Virus genome (UHGV): UHGV-0214148
Reading direction: 5' to 3' (one strand)
Length of the DNA: 64,000 nt
Source: a virus
Made by a program: the position numbers and the translations under genes. The notes below the pieces were generated by a model. The model was not told the origin of the DNA, searched no databases, and saw nothing but the letters and a program-made list of their open reading frames with translations. Every line of letters begins with the position of its first letter. Position 1 is the stretch's first letter. Positions 26,700-49,513 of the stretch are shown piece by piece.

Positions 26700-26715
26700 G
26701 ATTATTTTTAATGCG

Positions 26716-26761
26716 AAAAAAAAAAGAAAGGGGAGAACCACCCCATTACAGGGTGGTTCTC
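26716..26761 (-). terminator. intrinsic terminator after paralog 1
   Basis: Stem gagaaccaccc (26733-26743) / gggtggttctc (26751-26761); on minus strand followed by CCTTTCTTTTTTTTTT. Confidence 0.75.
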
Positions 26762-26779
26762 TTACTAAACAATCAGGGA

Positions 26780-28042
26780 TTATTTAGATTTTTCGTAAGC
26801 AGCGATACCTGCGGAGATATAGCCGTTCAGACCGCCAGCCAGATGTTTCTGAGTAGAGGCAATAACTTTCTCGCCCAGAGACACTGCCTGGTTAATGCTG
26901 TTGATGTAACGACGTGCGGTACGTACAGATTCGGTCAGTTCCGGTTTTTCGTCGATCTTCACGCTGTCGATTTCTTTCAGCAGCTTCTCAATCTGCTGAC
27001 TGAATTTCTCGCGAGCCTGTTCGGTCTTACGATATTCCAGAACGTTCTTCTCAATCTGTTTACCCACTTCGTTGAAGAAGGCATTGGTCTTAGCCAGTTC
27101 GCTAACAGACGGAGTTTTAACGTTGGTTTCAGCACGGTTTTCAGCTTCCACGTAGCTGGAGCTAAAGCCGCCTTCTTCGTCATATTCCATCTTCAGCGCC
27201 ATGTTACCAAGTTTGAACTTGTTAACGTCTTCTTTGGCCAGAGCAGCGAAGTCTGCTTTCAGTTTATCAACTTTAGCGCCATCGCCTTTAACAACGTTAC
27301 CAACCAAATCCGTACCGTTGTTCAGGAAGCTCTGAACGTTACCACTGTAGTAGGTGGAAACGTGGTTCAGGATATTCTTCAGGCGCACCAGATCGTCACC
27401 AACGAATTTACCGTCGACGGACAGAGACTTGATGAAGCCACCAGAGATTTCATCTTTCTTCTGTTTGCCCAGCTTACGAATAGCTTCGTCGTATTTCTTA
27501 GAACGGGCCTGGATGGATTTACCCTGGTTGGAGAATTTCAGCCAACGATCTTTGATCTTACGGCCTTGTTCTTTCAGCCATTCCCAAATACGTTTCAGGA
27601 AGGCTTTAATGTCTTCCCACAGGGATTCACGAGCAACCTGACGACGGTTACGAGAACCGTAGGATTCGTGAGCAACAGAAGAACGGTGTTCGAAGTTCCA
27701 ACGAGAACGGATAGATTCCTGAGCAACGTCCAGCGCAGTCGCAGCGTCGTCCGGCATATCTTCTTCGGCGTCCATCGGTTCTTCACCGTCTTCGCCAGCA
27801 CCTTCACCGTCAGCAGCAGCCTGAGCTTCATCCAGAACTTCCAGCTGAGCATCAGTTTCGTCACCGTCTTCTGCCAGCAGTTCAGCGTCAGCGTCCAGGG
27901 CTTCGATCGGTTTGGTATCATGCTCGATATCGGCCAGAGTACCTTCAACAGATTCTGCTGGCAGTTCGATGCCGTCTGGAACTACAGTGGCAGTAGCTTC
28001 CATCGATTCACGAGCGGCGCGAGTTTTTGCGAAATTTGCCAT
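26780..28042 (-). CDS. acidic paralog 1 of tandem pair (~420 aa); possible abundant virion/head protein
   Basis: Track ORF 26780..28069 starts at GTG; ATG at 28040-28042 gives MANFAKTRAARESMEA, identical to the paralog 2 N-terminus; shared C-terminus GLNGY..AGI.AY.KSK; optimal codon usage. Confidence 0.85.
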   Translation of the reverse strand: MANFAKTRAARESMEATATVVPDGIELPAESVEGTLADIEHDTKPIEALDADAELLAEDGDETDAQLEVLDEAQAAADGEGAGEDGEEPMDAEEDMPDDAATALDVAQESIRSRWNFEHRSSVAHESYGSRNRRQVARESLWEDIKAFLKRIWEWLKEQGRKIKDRWLKFSNQGKSIQARSKKYDEAIRKLGKQKKDEISGGFIKSLSVDGKFVGDDLVRLKNILNHVSTYYSGNVQSFLNNGTDLVGNVVKGDGAKVDKLKADFAALAKEDVNKFKLGNMALKMEYDEEGGFSSSYVEAENRAETNVKTPSVSELAKTNAFFNEVGKQIEKNVLEYRKTEQAREKFSQQIEKLLKEIDSVKIDEKPELTESVRTARRYINSINQAVSLGEKVIASTQKHLAGGLNGYISAGIAAYEKSK

Positions 28043-28118
28043 TTTAAGCTTTTCCTCTAAGGGGAACACGTCGTTCCCCTATTGATTTATTTCAAGAACT
28101 GTACGAGCGTAAGTCTAA

Positions 28119-32106: not shown

Positions 32107-33405
32107 ATGAGTGACGAGACAGATAAGAACGATCCGGGGTATGACCCGAATACTGACTACGACGATTCTCTCCACAATCCGAATAACGCGGACGCGGTGC
32201 CTTCGGTCGCAGGATATTTCGACGGACGGATTAGTAATGCTAACCCCCCGACGCCTTACGACGCTAATACTGAACTTACGGCATGGAACGATCGTATCCG
32301 TCTTACTGTAGGTTTGGGTCTTGCTGCGCAGCGTTTGACCAACCCCTACATGGGGTTCAACCATATGATGGCGTCTAACCCCACGCCAATCAACCGAGAA
32401 TACGGTGGACTAACTTTTATTACCCGGCCCGATTTTAACCTGTGCTACGACAACATTGCTAAGTCACGTAAAATGTCGAACATGGCAATGCAGCCAAAGG
32501 ACTCCATAGATTATTCGATTTTAGCTGCGCTTGACCCCGATTTTGAACTCGGATTTACGGACGCACCTATGGAAAACGGTAGGCGGAAAAATCGCTTAGG
32601 TACGCCGTTTATGCCTCAAGTAAAATTCGATAATCTACAAGCGTTCATACCAATACTCAGTACGCAGCTGATTAGCCTTAGTGGTGCACCCGATCAATCT
32701 ATTGATAACTGGATGGCAAGTGAAGGTTTAATGCGTGAACAGTGGGGGATGGTTGACTCTACCCATGAAGTTAACAACAGCTTTTCCATCAGCATGTCAT
32801 TAAACAACCCCTATGGCGACCCATTAATGAAAATGATGGGCGTGTGGCTAGAGTATATGTCTGGTGTGAAGATGGGTAAGTTCCGTCCGAAAATGCGTAA
32901 CTCCATTCAACGTAGAATCGATTATCAATCGCGAATCTACGGGATGCGTTACGATGCCTTAGGGAACATCACCCGTTTCTGGACGATTTGTGTCGCATGG
33001 CCGATGAACGATAACGCGGGACAAATGGCGAACGTTGATAACTCCAAACCGCAGTTAAACGACGATGTTACGATTACTATTAACTGGCAAGCTATCGGTG
33101 CGCGGTTTAACGATCCATTATACATGGAAATGTTTAACCGCACCGTTTCCATTTTTAATCCCGATATGCTCCCGCAGCCAGGCTCTATTCAATCGGGCAA
33201 CTTCATCCCGATTGCTAGTGATCAATTAGTCCCCATCGCACCACAATTGCTGCCGTTGTTTAACTATTACGGTTATCCGCATATCGATTCCGTACGACGC
33301 AAACTTACCTGGTATGTTTACCAGGCAGACTACCAACATATTCTCAAGAAAGCGGGATTACTGGATAACGCTAATGCCGCTTCACTACCGACAGGTAATA
33401 ACTGA
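32107..33405 (+). CDS. hypothetical protein (432 aa)
   Basis: ORF track; GGAG Shine-Dalgarno 8 nt upstream; stop overlaps next start (TGATG). Confidence 0.8.
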   Translation: MSDETDKNDPGYDPNTDYDDSLHNPNNADAVPSVAGYFDGRISNANPPTPYDANTELTAWNDRIRLTVGLGLAAQRLTNPYMGFNHMMASNPTPINREYGGLTFITRPDFNLCYDNIAKSRKMSNMAMQPKDSIDYSILAALDPDFELGFTDAPMENGRRKNRLGTPFMPQVKFDNLQAFIPILSTQLISLSGAPDQSIDNWMASEGLMREQWGMVDSTHEVNNSFSISMSLNNPYGDPLMKMMGVWLEYMSGVKMGKFRPKMRNSIQRRIDYQSRIYGMRYDALGNITRFWTICVAWPMNDNAGQMANVDNSKPQLNDDVTITINWQAIGARFNDPLYMEMFNRTVSIFNPDMLPQPGSIQSGNFIPIASDQLVPIAPQLLPLFNYYGYPHIDSVRRKLTWYVYQADYQHILKKAGLLDNANAASLPTGNN

Positions 33406-36360: not shown

Positions 36361-36412
36361 AAAAAATAATAAAAGTTACCCTACTCCCGGAGGAGTAGGG
36401 TAATCTTTTTTT
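36361..36412. terminator. bidirectional intrinsic terminator (stem shared with 41721-41770)
   Basis: A-run, stem ttaccctactcc (36376-36387) / ggagtagggtaa (36392-36403), T-run 36404-36412. Confidence 0.8.
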
Positions 36413-38081
36413 AATCAACTAATTTATTGAACTTCCCGCCTTTTACAAGTGGGTTGGACTTGGCGCGTTTCAACACCGTTGCCATAGACCCTGCAGCCTT
36501 GCACCACATGTTAATCATGTTTGCACTGTGCGCAACAGAATCCCAGACATTACGGTCAGGGTTTAACACCATCATCGTGGTCAATTCACGGCCGTGAATG
36601 TTAAAATTTTCCCTTCGCGTCACCTGGTCTTTAAACGCCTGTTCCATCGCCTGCCATTTCTCAGTGTCAACACCAGAACGTGACTGACGCGCCATCTCTT
36701 TCAGCGTTTTTACAACCTGATCGACACGTTTTTCCAACACCTTATACTTGTCCAGCGCAGTATTCGCCACACCGTCCGAGATACCACTACGTGCCAGCGT
36801 AATCAGACATGCTAACAGCTCACGATAGTCGCCGTTACTTAAGCTCAACTCCTGGCGCATCATCTCCAGGTTTGTTGTGGAGCCAAAGAAAGAGTTAACA
36901 CCGACTGATGCAATCATCCAACCGTTGTCTAATTCACGTGTGGTATAGCCGAGAAGCTCAACCTTGTCTTTTACACGCAAAATTGGGCCCGGGCTACCTT
37001 TCTGTCGACCGAACTCCGTGGCAGTAAATTCAATTCGGCCGTTGATCTCACCTAACGCACGGACCAGATGCACCGCAGCAACTTGGTTCTCTTGCGACGT
37101 GCCTACCTTCGGGTTATTTGACAGGTAGTAAGTTTTGATATCTTTCAGCGACTGGTCTAAGTCCTGAAGCGCACGAGCAAAACTGTCAAGAATCATGCTC
37201 ATTAGGTTGAACTGGGTATCTGACGGAATGTTCACACCAGCACGTTTCACATCAGGCGGCAAACCGTTATAGACTTCCTCAGCAACCCCGAAATCAAATA
37301 CACCGTAACCGATGTTCGTCCGTAGCAGCGTATCTAGCAGATCCTGAATAACCTGCAGCTCATTCTGACGTCGTTTAAGGTGGTTCTTAAACGTATCGAT
37401 AAACGGCGATTTCCCTAACGCGGCGGCGAGTTTATTTAGAAACTCTTCAGCTTCCATGTTCACGAAAACATCGTCGGCCAGTGAAAGAGATAACTCCAGG
37501 TTGCTTAACTCGCTGTCTTTCAAACCTTTTGACAGTACCAGATAAACTTCTTTCAGTACAGTAGTTTTCAAGCGCTCTGTGAAAGGAAGATCGGCCAACT
37601 TCTCTTCCAGTTTCTCGCGATAGTCGTTCCCGTCAATGTTCGCAGCGCCCGCAAAAGGAACAGCGTTGCTGATAATCCAACTGAGGATTTTCATTATCCC
37701 CATCATCACCATCACGATAAGGCTAATCTTACCGAAATTAGCGTAAGACTCTAATGCCACCACCGTTTCTTTCTGGTGTGTTTTGGAATAATTCGACGTC
37801 AGTACACTTTGTACAGCCTTCGGGATCGTGCCAGGACGCAAAGATTCAGTCGCTACAGCAACATCACGGTTCAATCCTGCTTTACGGATTTCACGCAGAA
37901 TCGCTTCAATCTGTGCGATAAGACGAGAACCGTAGATCAGGTCTGCTTCATTACGCTGCATGTAGAGATTGAGTTGGCTAACAGAATCGATTCGTTCTTC
38001 CATACGTTGTTCTAATAACGCAGGAAGTTCATCGAGTTTCCACTGCGGTTGCGCAATGTTTGCCATCATCTCCATGCTCAT
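36411..38081 (-). CDS. hypothetical protein (556 aa) with a hydrophobic segment
   Basis: ORF track; ISLIVMVMMGIMKILSWIISNAV hydrophobic stretch; ATGA overlap with upstream gene. Confidence 0.8.
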   Translation of the reverse strand: MSMEMMANIAQPQWKLDELPALLEQRMEERIDSVSQLNLYMQRNEADLIYGSRLIAQIEAILREIRKAGLNRDVAVATESLRPGTIPKAVQSVLTSNYSKTHQKETVVALESYANFGKISLIVMVMMGIMKILSWIISNAVPFAGAANIDGNDYREKLEEKLADLPFTERLKTTVLKEVYLVLSKGLKDSELSNLELSLSLADDVFVNMEAEEFLNKLAAALGKSPFIDTFKNHLKRRQNELQVIQDLLDTLLRTNIGYGVFDFGVAEEVYNGLPPDVKRAGVNIPSDTQFNLMSMILDSFARALQDLDQSLKDIKTYYLSNNPKVGTSQENQVAAVHLVRALGEINGRIEFTATEFGRQKGSPGPILRVKDKVELLGYTTRELDNGWMIASVGVNSFFGSTTNLEMMRQELSLSNGDYRELLACLITLARSGISDGVANTALDKYKVLEKRVDQVVKTLKEMARQSRSGVDTEKWQAMEQAFKDQVTRRENFNIHGRELTTMMVLNPDRNVWDSVAHSANMINMWCKAAGSMATVLKRAKSNPLVKGGKFNKLVD

Positions 38082-38521
38082 ACCAGTTTGCCTCGCGTTT
38101 CATCCATATAGAATTTCACCGTTTCCATGAAGCGTTCCAGCCACAGGTTAACGGTATCCCATACATCATCGCCCAGCGCTTCATTGAAAATCTCACGAAC
38201 AGAGAAATTCTCAATAGCGCGACGACCGCCCCAAGCACTGTCGTAACGGTTGCAGAATAGCCCAACGGTCAAATCTTCGATGCTGCCCAGGTCGACACAA
38301 TAGAGTTCGTTCACATCGGACACAACATTTTTCATCAACGGACGAAGTTTAAGTTGTGCTACCTCATTCGCTCCCAGCGGTCCATTATCGGGCATATCGG
38401 CGTTATACGCCAGTGTGAATGCAACCAGGCCAGTCAGAGCACGTTGTGCCTGTACTCCCTTACCCTCGTTCGTACGTTTAAAGTCCAGAACTAAGGAGTT
38501 TAAAGAAACTTTATGCGTCAT
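38078..38521 (-). CDS. hypothetical protein (147 aa)
   Basis: ORF track. Confidence 0.7.
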   Translation of the reverse strand: MTHKVSLNSLVLDFKRTNEGKGVQAQRALTGLVAFTLAYNADMPDNGPLGANEVAQLKLRPLMKNVVSDVNELYCVDLGSIEDLTVGLFCNRYDSAWGGRRAIENFSVREIFNEALGDDVWDTVNLWLERFMETVKFYMDETRGKLV

Positions 38522-38535
38522 GATTTTACCTTTAC

Positions 38536-39903
38536 TTATTCGACATTAAACATGGCTGAAGCAATACGAAGGTCATTCGACATGTACTTCCCGATTGCAC
38601 GCTGATAGTCCACAGCAGCACGTGAACGACGACCCTTCGGCGTCAAGGTATTCCAGATAAACTGATACAGATTATCTTTGTCTTTTACCGTTTCTAACAG
38701 CTTGTCGATAACCGCAATACCATCCAGAATACGTTTACGTTGTTCGTTAGCAGCTTTCGTATTCTTGTCTTTAATCGTATTGAGTTCTTCAACGAGTGTA
38801 CGACGCATCGCCTCAAAACGCTGCTGCGGCGGATCGTAAATGGTGTTATCCGGGTCATTTAAGATCATTCCGAACGTCACAGAGATCACCGGAATAATTG
38901 GAATCGTAGAAGAAACTATCAGCGCAGTCACGCGGAAAAGCTCCAGTGTCAAATGGACACCCATGTTCATATACGCTGAGTTCCGCAGCAAATAGAACGG
39001 ACTGGTTTCCATTTTATACAGTGCCGAGGCCAGATAAGGAGCGCCACCAAAGCGGGAAGCAAAATCATCCGCAGCACGTTCCCATGTCCTGTTAGCAAAA
39101 CCTTGACTGCCGCTAATGTACGGACGATCTAATAACAGCTGTGTGACTAAGTGCATATAGACGTTTTCTTTTTTGTACTCAGTACAAATCGTTTCCGGCT
39201 GATTCACTTTCGTGTTCAGCATCTTTTCCACGTCTTTAACGATACGCAGGCGGACAGTTTGGTCTTCCGTTTCCATAATGCGGTTAGCCGCAGCATCTGC
39301 CAGCAAATCAGTCACTACAGTGCGCATCAGCGTACGGAAATAATAGTAGATGTGGCCCACCTCGTGAAGAATCACCGAAGCGATCTCCAGATCGGTCAAG
39401 TTTAGTTTTTCCAGCAGCACCGGGGTAAGGTAAAGCGGAGAACCTACTTTGCTTAGGTCACCACTGATTTTTGCACTGCTGTCATCGATTGTTGTGTTTA
39501 ACTCGTTTTCTTTGATGAACTTACTGTACATATCCAGGTCTTTGTTACCTGCGTACAGTGCGCGAGTCATCGATGCGATGATTGGGCTGTTTGCATCCAA
39601 TTTCGGTGGTTCTACACCTGCAAAAGCAACGTCAGCAAGACCCAGTTCGCCACCGTTCTTAAAGTGAATCGTAATGCCGATATTCTTAAATACCCAATCC
39701 GAAACCCCGGCACTTTCGTAGCCCGCAGGACTGAAATCGCCTGCCCCACGAAACTTAGCAATAACATCAGCCAATTCTGCCAGCTTCTTTTTGTCTTGGA
39801 ATTTAATCGATTCTGCGGCTACAACCTTTGCATCCGCAACTGATGCAATGTGATTTTGCCAATATCCCATTTGTGTTTCCTTTTGAGAAATTACATTACC
39901 CAC
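38536..39903 (-). CDS. putative zinc metalloprotease (HExxH; M48/M56-like)
   Basis: ORF track; ILHEVGHIYYY (HExxH) followed ~75 aa later by WERAADDFA (ExxADxxA-like third-ligand motif). Confidence 0.6.
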   Translation of the reverse strand: MGNVISQKETQMGYWQNHIASVADAKVVAAESIKFQDKKKLAELADVIAKFRGAGDFSPAGYESAGVSDWVFKNIGITIHFKNGGELGLADVAFAGVEPPKLDANSPIIASMTRALYAGNKDLDMYSKFIKENELNTTIDDSSAKISGDLSKVGSPLYLTPVLLEKLNLTDLEIASVILHEVGHIYYYFRTLMRTVVTDLLADAAANRIMETEDQTVRLRIVKDVEKMLNTKVNQPETICTEYKKENVYMHLVTQLLLDRPYISGSQGFANRTWERAADDFASRFGGAPYLASALYKMETSPFYLLRNSAYMNMGVHLTLELFRVTALIVSSTIPIIPVISVTFGMILNDPDNTIYDPPQQRFEAMRRTLVEELNTIKDKNTKAANEQRKRILDGIAVIDKLLETVKDKDNLYQFIWNTLTPKGRRSRAAVDYQRAIGKYMSNDLRIASAMFNVE

Positions 39904-39941
39904 AAATCAGTATAGCAGCCGCTAGATTTGAGAGTGAAATC

Positions 39942-41723
39942 ATGAATAACTATTACGCACCGGAAGACGTTATTGCCAAGGAGTGCAAGTTTGTTTCTTA
40001 CGCAACCGATCAGCAGAAAGAAAACGACTTCGTGCTCATAAAGGAGGTCGTCCATACTAAAGATGGCAGATATATCCCACGAATTGTCATGCGTGAAAAT
40101 CTGAAACGTCCCATCTACATTACATTACCACAACATCGTAACCACAAGGAAAAGAAGGAATACGAGGAACGTAGTAAGTGTCAGGAGTATTTAACAACGG
40201 ATGTAATGATGTCCTCAACCATACAGATGGGTTTGGGGATTCGTTTTCCCGACAAAAAGAAACCACTCCGCCAAGTTTGCACTTCACCGTTTGTTTACTG
40301 GGCCGATTTGCCCATTACGAGCTGGATTAAAGAAAAGTACATGCGTAAATGGCCTAATGCTGTTTCACCCAACCGCATCTGTGTATACGACGTGGAAACT
40401 CGAGAAGAAGACAAATCTCGAGACCCCTGGATTATGAGTTTTGTTTTAGACGACGAAATTCATTTCTTTGCTACGAAAGACTATGTCACACGCTGCGGAC
40501 GTGAAAACTTTGAAGCGCGACTCGTCAATCGTGCTCAGGAATTGCTTTCTAAAATCGCTTTTCGTGGGAAAGACGAGAACGACAATCCTATCGTTAAATA
40601 CAAAAACGTTATCGACGGTTACAAAATCTTCGTTTACGAATGTCTCAATTCGGGCTGTTGTATTCAACGGATGTTTGAGGAAATTCACCCTCGTCTCCCT
40701 GACTTACTCGTCGCATGGAACCACGAGTTCGATATTTCACGTATGTTAGAAGCTTTAGAAGCAGCGGGCATTCCACCGGAAGACGTCTTCTGTCATCCAG
40801 ACGTGCCGAAACAGTACCGTCGTGTCTACTTTAAGAAAGACGAAGCATCGAAGAAAACGGAATCAAAGTCACTAACAAAAGCACCTTCACAGCAGTGGCA
40901 CATTCTTTATTGTACGGCGTCATTCTACTGTGTAGATGCGATGTGTCTATTCCGTTCATTGCGTGTACACGAAGGGCAACGTCCTTCTTACAAACTTAAC
41001 GCGATACTGGAAACCGAGTTGGGTTTAAACAAGTTAGACTTACCGGATTTACCCTACGAGGAAAAATTGGAATGGCACTTAAAGGCACAGAAAGATTTCC
41101 CGTTAGAATACTGCGTTTATAACATCTTCGATAACCTGATGATTGTTCTGCTTGATAAAAAGACGAACGATCTGTCTTCTGCTATTTCAGTGTTGGCAGG
41201 TTATTCGATGTACGATATCTTCCCTTCACTGCCGAAGCGAATCTGTATTGCGTACACGTACTACCTCTACGAACAAGGTCTGGTTATCGGCTGTGTTGGT
41301 AGCGCGATGCGTAACGATTTTGACAATGAAGTCATTGGGACAGACGGTTGGATTGTTACATTGACCGCGTGTATGAACGCAGAGAATGGCCTACGAAACA
41401 TCATCAAGGAGGTTGATGATTTCTACACGGCTTTCCGTGGACAAACCGCAGATGCTGACTTAACCCAGGCATACCCATCCGCAACAAACATGATGAACCA
41501 GTCTCGTGAGACGACGTTAATCGAGTTATTAAGCATTCACGGTGTTCCTGAAGAAGTACGGCGTCGCGTCGGTATTAACCTTACTGCAGGTCGCGTTAAC
41601 GCAATGGAGATCGCGACAGATTTCTTCCTATTACCCGATAAAAACGACGTCTTAGAAGCTTTTCTACGTCGACAAGGAGAAGCAATTACCGATCCTTTTG
41701 AATACATCAAAGCCGCAAAGTAA
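39942..41723 (+). CDS. putative 3'-5' exonuclease (DnaQ / family-B polymerase exonuclease-domain-like)
   Basis: Track ORF 39828..41723 trimmed to ATG 39942 (MNNYYAPEDV) to avoid overlapping the divergent gene; motifs VYDVETRE (Exo I DxE), WNHEFD (Exo II), YNIFDNL (Exo III YxxxD). No polymerase motifs A/C seen. Confidence 0.55.
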   Translation: MNNYYAPEDVIAKECKFVSYATDQQKENDFVLIKEVVHTKDGRYIPRIVMRENLKRPIYITLPQHRNHKEKKEYEERSKCQEYLTTDVMMSSTIQMGLGIRFPDKKKPLRQVCTSPFVYWADLPITSWIKEKYMRKWPNAVSPNRICVYDVETREEDKSRDPWIMSFVLDDEIHFFATKDYVTRCGRENFEARLVNRAQELLSKIAFRGKDENDNPIVKYKNVIDGYKIFVYECLNSGCCIQRMFEEIHPRLPDLLVAWNHEFDISRMLEALEAAGIPPEDVFCHPDVPKQYRRVYFKKDEASKKTESKSLTKAPSQQWHILYCTASFYCVDAMCLFRSLRVHEGQRPSYKLNAILETELGLNKLDLPDLPYEEKLEWHLKAQKDFPLEYCVYNIFDNLMIVLLDKKTNDLSSAISVLAGYSMYDIFPSLPKRICIAYTYYLYEQGLVIGCVGSAMRNDFDNEVIGTDGWIVTLTACMNAENGLRNIIKEVDDFYTAFRGQTADADLTQAYPSATNMMNQSRETTLIELLSIHGVPEEVRRRVGINLTAGRVNAMEIATDFFLLPDKNDVLEAFLRRQGEAITDPFEYIKAAK

Positions 41724-47803: not shown

Positions 47804-49513
47804 TTATTTACGACGTCTAAAACGTCGGGATACGCCTTTAAAACTTTTTCGAGAAAACTTGCTAAGTTCAGACCGGCATACGGCGCGGTTGGCTCTGTTG
47901 GCTGCGGCGGTAGTAACATCAGCTTTCCTTACAATATACGGTGAGGTGGCTATCTTAAACGACAACACAGAATCACTCAGTGATTTTTGACGCGCATTCA
48001 AATAATTACAATGCTTCGGTATCGAATAAGAATGGAATAACCACACAACGGGATCGAGTTCACCCCAGTCGTTGTGGAGAATCTTACGAGGGCGTCCGGC
48101 CATCTGGCGGTTTAACTGCTGGTCTTCCACAGGGGTAGTGATGTACATGTGTACCAACCCCGGTTTGTCGACCGCAGTACCTGCTTTCCCTGGTGTTGAA
48201 ATAGAGAAATCCGCTTGAATAAAGTCGTCATACGAATCCCCTGCGTTATATTTCGCAACCATCAAAGCGTGGAACTTATCAGATTGTGCGAGCTTCTCTC
48301 GCACGTAATCCGTAAAGAACTCACACATTGCGACGGTTGCAAACAACACCAACACTTTCTGACCAGGTTGATAACCTGCCAGATACGTCCGTTCTATTAC
48401 ATCCCAGACCATATCCGCGTACGACTGATGAAGGTTTTCGCTAATCAGCTTCCCTTCAAACAGTTTGTGGTTATACGGGGTCATCTTCGTTGCCCACCAC
48501 GCAAACCGTTTATTCTCAATTCGGTAATACAACGCTTTCACGTGCACCGCAGGAATAATCGGAATGGTGATACGTGCCTCTTGTGGGAAACGTTCTTTAT
48601 ACCGTTCTGCCAAGAACGCTTTCGATTCACCCGGTTGGAGTGTGGCTGACATCTCAACAGAGGGCGGCGGATTCAACATAATTCCAGCCATGTACACCAA
48701 GTGGAAATGTTCGTGCACTTCATCCATCGATAAAAACCCAACACCTAGCGTGTTATAGAAATCATCGATGTTCGCTGGGTTAGTCGCAGCGGTATTGATA
48801 TATTCTTTCAAAAACCGCTGTAACGTCACTGTAGAGACGATAATAACTTTGATGCCACGTTTATCCAACTCACCACTTTCACCCATTTCTAGCGCTTCGT
48901 AGACCGCTTGTACGCCCTGTATAACCAAGACGTCCTCTTTCGATTCACGAAGTCCAGTAGGATCTTCCGTTAAGTCGAATAACCATTTAGAGATGTACGT
49001 GGGTCGATGAATCAATAACGTTCTTACCCCTTTACGAACCATCACTTTCATGTTCGTCTTCGACTTACCCATCCCTGTACCAATCTCAAAGATGGTTTGT
49101 AAGCGGTTAGGCTGGCACGCCGTTTCTACAACGCCATTCTGATAAAAGAAACGTGACGACTCATCTTCTTCTATCATGTTAAAGCCGTAGTTTTCAAACG
49201 TACAGCGGTAAGGTGTTCCCTGGGTTAAGTGGTGCTCGTAGAGTTTAAAGTCAATAGCAAACTCAGCGGCCGTTCGGTTAATAATGATTCGTAAACGTTC
49301 GGAAAAATTCCGGTGGAATATAAAGGTACGGATAGAAGGTATATGCGCGTAATACGGATCGCCACGTTCGGTGATGATTCTTCCGTATTGTTTACCCATT
49401 TTCGGGGCGTGCATATTCTCTTCTGCCCACTTTAGGATTGCCGACTCTATAGGTCGACAAGGGACTTCGACCCTCACGCCCATGCTCGTAAAGGTCATGT
49501 GGAATTCGTACAT
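47804..49513 (-). CDS. SF2 DExH-box helicase
   Basis: ORF track; Walker A GTGMGKSKT, Walker B DEVHE, motif III SAT, motif VI QMAGRPRK. Confidence 0.8.
   Translation of the reverse strand: MYEFHMTFTSMGVRVEVPCRPIESAILKWAEENMHAPKMGKQYGRIITERGDPYYAHIPSIRTFIFHRNFSERLRIIINRTAAEFAIDFKLYEHHLTQGTPYRCTFENYGFNMIEEDESSRFFYQNGVVETACQPNRLQTIFEIGTGMGKSKTNMKVMVRKGVRTLLIHRPTYISKWLFDLTEDPTGLRESKEDVLVIQGVQAVYEALEMGESGELDKRGIKVIIVSTVTLQRFLKEYINTAATNPANIDDFYNTLGVGFLSMDEVHEHFHLVYMAGIMLNPPPSVEMSATLQPGESKAFLAERYKERFPQEARITIPIIPAVHVKALYYRIENKRFAWWATKMTPYNHKLFEGKLISENLHQSYADMVWDVIERTYLAGYQPGQKVLVLFATVAMCEFFTDYVREKLAQSDKFHALMVAKYNAGDSYDDFIQADFSISTPGKAGTAVDKPGLVHMYITTPVEDQQLNRQMAGRPRKILHNDWGELDPVVWLFHSYSIPKHCNYLNARQKSLSDSVLSFKIATSPYIVRKADVTTAAANRANRAVCRSELSKFSRKSFKGVSRRFRRRK

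Follow-up and report, generated by a model that had tools for sequence, protein, structure and literature searches.

Within a stretch of 64,000 nucleotides of the UHGV virus genome UHGV-0214148 (hereafter the window), the minus strand carries at 38536..39870 a gene whose product is best explained as a packaged, divergent M48-type zinc metallopeptidase of the head of an SPN3US-like chimallivirus, predicted to be catalytically competent. We consider this overall explanation probable, and are slightly more confident of its core, i.e. that the protein, by its sequence, is an M48-type zinc metallopeptidase and an orthologue of virion head proteins. Its sequence and the data on its orthologues strongly support a picture in which this product of a late operon, with its M48-like active site, would be directed into the prohead, lose residues 1-20 by a cut after E20, and stay in the head in tens of copies. 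Where the enzyme acts is a more tentative matter: the place that we favour, at a little short of an even chance, is the newly infected cell, with the peptidase as an ejected effector that inserts into a membrane. A role inside the capsid is its serious rival.

The sequence-only reading had placed a gene at 38536-39903, and the open reading frame (ORF) is indeed present on the minus strand, with 455 codons from a GTG, HEVGH at residues 180-184 and ERAADDFA at residues 275-282 in the 455-residue numbering. Its start at 39903 is probably wrong; most likely, judging from the sequence context, translation begins at ATG 39870 and yields 444 residues. This start is preferred because an AAGGAA Shine-Dalgarno sequence (39877-39882) lies 6 nt 5′ of it, because the match to phrog_2767 (E 8e-151) spans residues 12-453 of the called 455-residue ORF, and because of the starts and length of homologues, which open with MG(Y/H)W and whose nearest database member (P0001, from Salmonella assemblies, 90% identity) also has 444 residues. 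Residue numbers refer to the 444-residue form unless stated otherwise. The features of the gene, all on the minus strand, are:

38536..39870, coding sequence of the peptidase, 444 residues, 49.8 kDa (47.7 kDa without residues 1-20)
39871..39903, the 11 extra codons of the mechanically called ORF (GTG 39903), probably 5′ untranslated region with the ribosome-binding site
39811..39870, residues 1-20 (MGYWQNHIASVADAKVVAAE), predicted capsid-targeting propeptide ending in an A-A-E motif
39352..39366, HEVGH, residues 169-173, predicted to hold two zinc-ligand histidines and the catalytic glutamate
39067..39081, ERAAD, residues 264-268, with the predicted third zinc ligand E264 in an M48-type E-x-x-A-D helix
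38857..38931, residues 314-338 (VTALIVSSTIPIIPVISVTFGMILN), uncharged and hydrophobic with a central Pro-rich turn, a candidate membrane anchor or re-entrant hairpin
38818..38838, YDPPQQR, residues 345-351, a family signature in which R351 is invariant and Y345 and D346 are conserved in at least 90%

Nucleotide and protein searches relate the window to SPN3US-like jumbo phages of Salmonella and Erwinia, with about 74% DNA identity in the polymerase region. This placement agrees with further genes of the window, which encode RNA polymerase beta-type subunits, a divergent DnaB-like ATPase, a helicase, a major head protein, and an internal head protein of the phiKZ type (PF12699). Seoulvirus has been assigned to the family Chimalliviridae, and by these similarities the window derives from an SPN3US-like chimallivirus. 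The peptidase is 70% identical over 99% of its length to 'putative virion structural protein 1' of SPN3US-group phages (tblastn) and 26% identical to phiKZ gp84 (BLASTP, E 2e-20). By homology it is the orthologue of SPN3US gp45, phiKZ gp84, and Goslar gp67 (PHROG 2767), with which it shares full-length similarity, the gene neighbourhood, an S/A-x-E site near residue 20, the HExGH and E...D motifs, and the hydrophobic segment; there is no difference of substance. It is an ordinary orthologue of a known and conserved jumbo-phage head protein.

The diversity of the family comes from an exhaustive profile search of representative clusters, which returned 2009 clusters at E ≤ 1e-3; with two word-indexed protein searches, no relative below 42% identity came up. 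In a 142-sequence alignment with a mean column identity of 24%, the sole invariant columns are H169, E170, G172, H173, E264, D268, and R351, and HE[LIVCFT]GH is found in 146 of the 147 representative homologues listed. The sequence-only reading called the distance between HEVGH and ERAADDFA the expected one. This is roughly right, but the His-to-Glu spacing of 95 residues (91-99 across the 142 homologues) is somewhat long when compared with 83 in E. coli HtpX and 80 in ZMPSTE24.

A bare HExxH is no evidence of a peptidase, since about 0.46 are expected by chance in the 47 long ORFs of the window (19,354 codons) and one of the two seen is fortuitous: the second (DEVHEHFHL) forms the DExH box of the PHROG_16 DNA helicase that the minus strand encodes at 47804-49513. 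The evidence for the peptidase is the family-wide invariance, the profile matches, and the predicted fold, not the motif alone. The chance expectation and the helicase copy do lend something to an explanation in which an HExxH arose fortuitously in an unrelated helical protein, or in which the protein is a member of a different zincin family, e.g. M56 with its BlaR1/MecR1-type sensor proteases, as do weak Pfam matches to ATLF and, in two relatives, to SprT-like. We consider this highly improbable, as the zinc motifs are invariant and the M48 profile matches significant, while the M56 family of Pfam (PF05569) is unmatched in all 100 relatives scanned; a motif that arose by chance can effectively be dismissed, and membership of M56 is very unlikely. 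The zinc-ligand arrangement had been described as 'M48/M56-type', of which the M48 half is borne out by the ZMPSTE24 and HtpX profile matches given below and the M56 half is not.

Profile comparisons point to M48. The 142-sequence profile finds ZMPSTE24 in the PDB at E 3.8e-5 with both zinc motifs aligned, HEVGH pairing with HELGH (335-339) and E264 with the zinc ligand E415. In hhalign against E. coli HtpX (the sequence used being 100% identical to a database entry), the probability is 78% and the E value 1.8e-5; here HEVGH pairs with HEISH (139-143) and E264 with the REFHAD motif. Pfam Peptidase_M48 is matched by 33 of 100 relatives at E ≤ 0.01 (best 2e-5) and is the only recurrent Pfam family, with every other family matching at most two of the 100. 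Searches with a single sequence are too weak to decide, and the 142-sequence profile is needed: phmmer with the peptidase alone against the PDB gave nothing relevant, and a profile of close relatives found ZMPSTE24 at E 0.84 only. A structure prediction, proposed by the sequence-only reading as a check for a gluzincin fold, gave an AF2 model for which Foldseek ranked the M48 member ZMPSTE24 first in the PDB, and the predicted fold, an M48/gluzincin fold in this model, is best matched by M48 peptidases. The earlier proviso that searches might find no metallopeptidase fold around the HExxH has not come true, given the Pfam, ZMPSTE24, and HtpX results.

Three results weigh against the assignment. 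The peptidase itself scores below the Pfam M48 gathering threshold (17.5 versus 20.3 bits, E 0.0038), the AF2 model is of moderate quality (pLDDT 73, from a 21-sequence alignment), and the Foldseek matches in the PDB are without significance (best E 0.12, TM about 0.16). The NCBIfam HtpX equivalog cut-off is also missed (12.4 versus 422 bits). Because both curated thresholds are missed, we describe the protein as M48-like and divergent rather than as a curated M48 member. There is nevertheless strong support, at the level of sequence, for a divergent M48-like gluzincin with a predicted intact catalytic apparatus, in which H169, H173, and E264 would bind zinc and E170 would act as the general base.

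The protein could also be a structural pseudo-enzyme, i.e. an M48-derived fold that serves as a head-internal building block and perhaps binds zinc, with no proteolysis. Most genomes annotate it only as 'virion structural protein', no cleavages other than those of the SPN3US prohead protease gp245 have been reported in SPN3US heads, and the sequence lies under the curated M48 thresholds, all of which agree with such a role. Pseudo-enzymes normally lose catalytic residues. The general base E170, needless in a structural zinc site, is invariant across the 142 sequences together with H169, H173, E264, and D268, and for this reason we consider a pseudo-enzyme improbable, if less so than a chance motif.

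Like the known M48 enzymes (E. coli HtpX, Ste24p/ZMPSTE24, BepA, and Geobacter 3C37), the peptidase has an HExxH and a downstream Glu in an E-x-x-A-D helix, with significant profile similarity, and its strongly hydrophobic segment hints at an association with membranes, which most M48 enzymes share. It differs from them in several respects. N-terminal transmembrane helices and a signal peptide are absent, an extra N-terminal region of about 140 residues and a C-terminal helical domain of about 100 residues are present, and the protein is predicted to be delivered into a capsid and trimmed by a viral serine protease. In addition, its single hydrophobic segment follows the Glu helix, whereas that of HtpX lies between HExxH and the Glu.

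Delivery into the capsid is indicated by the N-terminus. The predicted cleavage context in the peptidase is A-A-E20 / S-I-K-F-Q, and E20 is conserved in 99% of 143 homologues and invariant across a 100-sequence set. By sequence comparison, an S/A/G/T-x-E site near residue 20 is present in the peptidase and conserved throughout the family. The orthologous SPN3US gp45 is a head protein 'processed at ASE-20' according to mass spectrometry (PMC5694885 Table 1; PMC10052503), and is cut by gp245, a T4 gp21-like prohead protease (PMC5694885, PMC10052503). No other SPN3US head protein has a propeptide in the short length range of T4 capsid-targeting sequences (Ali et al.).

Orthologues of the peptidase are found in virions. 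SPN3US gp45 is a mid-to-low-abundance head protein, with an SC/M of 2.99, where the portal, present in 12 copies, has 1.29 and gp47 has 2.17 (PMC5694885). Goslar gp067 occurs in virions at an estimated 32/48/76 copies, and its HEIGH-containing peptide is among the mass spectrometry data; the corresponding estimates for gp065 are 51/76/120, and those for the 55-copy vertex proteins gp065 and gp042 lie at about 50-125. The phiKZ orthologue is annotated as 'structural head protein'. In the icosahedral and C5 maps of the phiKZ and Goslar capsids, the peptidase orthologue is not visible.

The second feature that bears on where the enzyme acts is its hydrophobic segment. Residues 314-338 have a Kyte-Doolittle mean of 1.96 over 19 residues, and the equivalent 19-residue window scores at least 1.6 in 137 of 142 homologues (median 2.2). 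Uncharged runs in these homologues, with a median of 27.5 residues, often include a central Pro or Gly, while their sequence is itself unconserved. An uncharged hydrophobic segment of 25-31 residues after the Glu helix is, by this alignment, a family-wide feature. In the AF2 model, helices cover 303-320 and 325-337, and the segment is among the three most hydrophobic stretches of the window, the top one lying in the third gene of the same operon. Since hydrophobicity is kept while sequence varies, the segment can be read as membrane-type, and its pattern is typical of a membrane-embedded stretch, putatively a single span or a re-entrant hairpin. The conserved YDPPxxR further downstream resembles by eye the C-terminal HPPxxxR motif of HtpX (THPPLDKRI in P0184). 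An equivalence of the two found no support in hhalign: a C-terminal sub-alignment against an HtpX alignment matched a different region (E 0.31) with the motifs unpaired.

In the mechanism that we favour, the enzyme would travel as cargo of the head and leave it together with the DNA, as T4 Alt and the T4 internal proteins do. After ejection, the hydrophobic segment would insert into the inner membrane or into the membrane of the early-infection (EPI) vesicle, where the enzyme would cleave polypeptides close to the membrane; these would be proteins of the host or phage proteins ejected along with it, e.g. its gp47-like partner. Typical of M48 enzymes is action at a membrane, on chains that are unfolded or lie close to it, and in chimalliviruses the obvious membrane to target is the inner membrane or that of the EPI vesicle, which is made from it. 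An ejected effector is favoured because a T4-type short targeting peptide is combined with an enzyme at Alt-like copy number, because the conserved membrane-type segment would be needless for a scavenger of the capsid interior, and because M48 enzymes typically act at membranes. The peptidase has in common with T4 Alt and IPI-III the short N-terminal targeting peptide, the gp21-type x-x-E site, and the tens of copies, and Alt is likewise an enzyme (PMC5694885). It has no sequence or fold kinship with them, and ejection is proven for T4, whereas the peptidase is likened to these proteins at the sequence level only; the chemistry also differs, being a predicted peptidase here and an ADP-ribosyltransferase in Alt. 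The sequence-only reading had supposed that such a protease would more likely target host or regulatory substrates, which is plausible.

The neighbouring genes bear on the same question. As the sequence-only reading had remarked, the gene is co-oriented with genes for a 147-residue protein and a 556-residue protein (coding sequence 36411-38081), the latter with a hydrophobic segment. This segment, at residues 116-134, is transmembrane-like. The peptidase gene leads these three minus-strand genes, with a 14-nt gap followed by a 4-nt overlap. Its two partners, both on the minus strand, are:

38078..38521, operon gene 2, 147 residues, phrog_8529, orthologue of SPN3US gp46 (72% identity)
36411..38081, operon gene 3, 556 residues, phrog_8131 (E 1.8e-143), orthologue of SPN3US gp47 (41% identity)

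A 4-sequence profile of the 147-residue protein has Goslar gp66 (E 2.5e-4) and phiKZ gp85 (E 1e-3) as its top non-self matches; pairwise BLAST against the same two proteins was empty. This supports the 147-residue protein being a vertex-binding-complex dimer protein, a putative remote homologue of phiKZ gp85 and Goslar gp66, which are vertex-binding-complex proteins (PMC11297242; bioRxiv 10.64898/2026.04.21.720040). In the 556-residue protein, the protease motifs ATE-79 and ALE-111 have residue numbers identical to those of the mapped SPN3US gp47 sites, and segment 116-134 is the most hydrophobic 19-mer in the window. BLAST detected no pairwise similarity of this protein to phiKZ gp86 or Goslar gp65, and the case for its equivalence to them is made by its position and by Ali et al. 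2017. SPN3US gp47 is an essential head protein that the SPN3US authors call an ejection protein, in contrast to the phiKZ and Goslar proteins at the gp47 position (gp86 and gp65), which are fixed inner-capsid vertex proteins.

Certain homologues join the peptidase to other sequence. Several metagenomic homologues of 800-1450 residues (P0071, P0100, P0066, P0063, P0116, P0123, P0111, and P0088) combine an M48-like domain with long extensions. In three of them (P0071, P0100, and P0066), part of the upstream extension resembles the N-terminal region of the gp47-like protein, and the fusion junctions retain an x-x-E/[SAG]-[IV]-x-[FH]-Q site. As this site is kept, the prohead protease would be expected to release the peptidase domain from the fusions. 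To judge from their sequences, the fused homologues look like polyproteins meant for cutting in the prohead, with gene-calling artefacts as a possibility. A Pfam scan of their N-terminal extensions gave no match.

In the rival account, the same enzyme would take part in maturation within the prohead, as a second protease held at the vertex-binding complex or close to it, and would have no function after ejection. We consider this possible but less likely than an ejected effector, and give the same standing to the version in which it breaks down the propeptide or scaffold fragments that the gp21-like serine protease sets free, perhaps once this protease has activated it by removal of residues 1-20. 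Such a role would suit the operon shared with a gp85-like gene and a gene in the gp86 position, as both belong to the inner vertex complex in phiKZ and Goslar. The abundance is near that of the 55-copy vertex proteins, in Goslar (gp067 beside gp065) as in SPN3US (gp45 beside gp47), and there are natural gp47-like fusions with a protease site at the junction. A maturation function has also been proposed by Iyer et al. 2021 for the zincin of group 1 jumbo phages (PMC7824862). On the other side, mapping in SPN3US heads has yielded 14 cleavage sites, each of which conforms to the gp245 motif (cutting after Glu), with no other specificity reported. Some SPN3US propeptide fragments persist in heads, so that no thorough scavenger is evident. 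The protein is invisible in the icosahedral and C5 maps, and the family-wide transmembrane-like segment is left unexplained by a role within the capsid.

The ejected effector has its own difficulties. In phiKZ and Goslar, the operon partners serve as structural proteins of the inner capsid and are not known to be ejected, the copy number of the peptidase resembles that of the vertex complex (55), and some metagenomic homologues are fused to gp47-like sequence. Given these partners, copy numbers, and fusions, the in-capsid role fits at least equally well. The literature searched contained no biochemical data for any homologue and no injection data for the gp45/gp84/gp67 family; injection data exist for other Goslar and phiKZ head proteins, Goslar gp60 and gp61 among them. 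PHIKZ084 received 0 transposon insertions over 1242 bp, against a genome-wide density of one unique insertion per 42 bp. In the same phiKZ study, orf85-86 was deleted despite zero insertions, a discrepancy ascribed to polar effects. As orf85-86 is deletable though also insertion-free, the essentiality of orf84 is suggested rather than proven, and its gap in the transposon data may be a polar or read-through artefact.

The idea of a zinc peptidase in these phages is already known, from GenBank notes for Moabite and AR9 and from Iyer et al. 2021, and the value of this analysis therefore lies in a sharpened, testable picture and not in a discovery. Iyer et al. described a 'conserved, uncharacterized zincin-like metallopeptidase' of group 1 (phiKZ-like) jumbo phages, e.g. 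AMR59696.1 (PMC7824862). This zincin very likely belongs to the family of the peptidase. In the GenBank entry of Serratia phage Moabite, the homologue is an 'M48 family lipoprotein protease', with HHpred at 98% to HtpX 3CQB and BLAST to phiKZ084; this entry is a direct tblastn homologue of the peptidase. The 'Zincin protease' entries of Bacillus phage AR9 are Foldseek matches to the peptidase model. These sources analyse neither the hydrophobic segment nor the propeptide site, nor do they treat the operon partners and the fusions, and in the reviews and the structural, proteomic, and genetic literature searched, gp84, gp45, and gp67 are neither named nor tested as proteases. New here are the family-wide catalytic invariance and the conservation of both the processing site and the membrane-type segment. 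The link that the operon makes to vertex-complex proteins is also new, as are the fusions and the comparison of copy numbers.

The chimalliviruses, which include phiKZ, Goslar, SPN3US, and their relatives, are candidates for use in phage therapy, and recent reviews list EPI vesicle formation and the identity of injected virion proteins among the open questions. With conserved zinc-protease residues, a membrane-type segment, tens of copies per head, and an insertion-free orf84 in phiKZ, the peptidase is a mutable candidate for a function in early infection or in head maturation. We offer, as a doubtful possibility, that the ejected protease would act in the first minutes of infection on the inner or EPI membrane, for instance by removing or clipping proteins of the host inner membrane or by processing co-ejected membrane proteins of the phage, e.g. 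the gp47-like one. It is just as doubtful that this would extend across the chimalliviruses and the related jumbo phages with their own multisubunit RNA polymerases. If true, an ejected membrane protease would be one missing protein factor behind the formation or function of the EPI vesicle.

Two further elements delimit the operon:

39871..39941, no strand assigned, divergent intergenic region of 71 bp between the peptidase operon and the DNA polymerase gene
36375..36404, no strand assigned, strong bidirectional hairpin terminator with a 12-13 bp stem and T-runs on both strands

The called ORFs at 39828-41723 (plus strand) and 38536-39903 (minus strand) overlap head-to-head. This overlap is attributable to both called starts being too early, and with the ATGs at 39942 and 39870 it gives way to the 71-bp intergenic region. 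The DNA polymerase PHROG match begins at residue 41 of the called ORF, and the true polymerase start is most likely, from its sequence, ATG 39942 (MNNYYAPEDV...). The intergenic region contains one weak sigma-70-like match, in a scan that was at background (six found versus 6.1 expected). The relevance of this match is doubtful, since the phage has its own RNA polymerases.

The terminator closes the three-gene minus-strand unit as well as a convergent gene for a 984-residue baseplate-wedge-like protein, which by its position corresponds to the baseplate-wedge genes of phiKZ (gp87) and Moabite. Just upstream of this 984-residue gene, the plus strand encodes at 32107-33405 a 432-residue protein for which Pfam gives Phage_TTP_15 ('putative phage tail tube protein') with an E value of 4e-176, from which it follows that head-interior and tail or baseplate genes interleave on opposite strands. 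The common gene order runs from a divergent DNA polymerase through the peptidase, the gene of about 147 residues, and at least one variable protein to a convergent baseplate-wedge-type gene where annotated. This order is kept in SPN3US, phiKZ, Goslar, Moabite, Halocynthia phage JM-2012, and RAY.

Elsewhere in the window, an ORF of 449 residues at 26711-28060 (plus strand) lies on the minority strand and has about 42% identity to its SPN3US-group counterparts; no PHROG or Pfam match was found for it. By this comparison it is a fast-evolving gene, given that the peptidase and its 147-residue neighbour are each about 70% identical to their own SPN3US-group counterparts. Finally, the entries P0030-P0036, from Salmonella phages SPFM1-SPFM20, match the query only in many short pieces, P0031 in 20 stretches, which suggests frameshift-ridden assemblies rather than true divergence.

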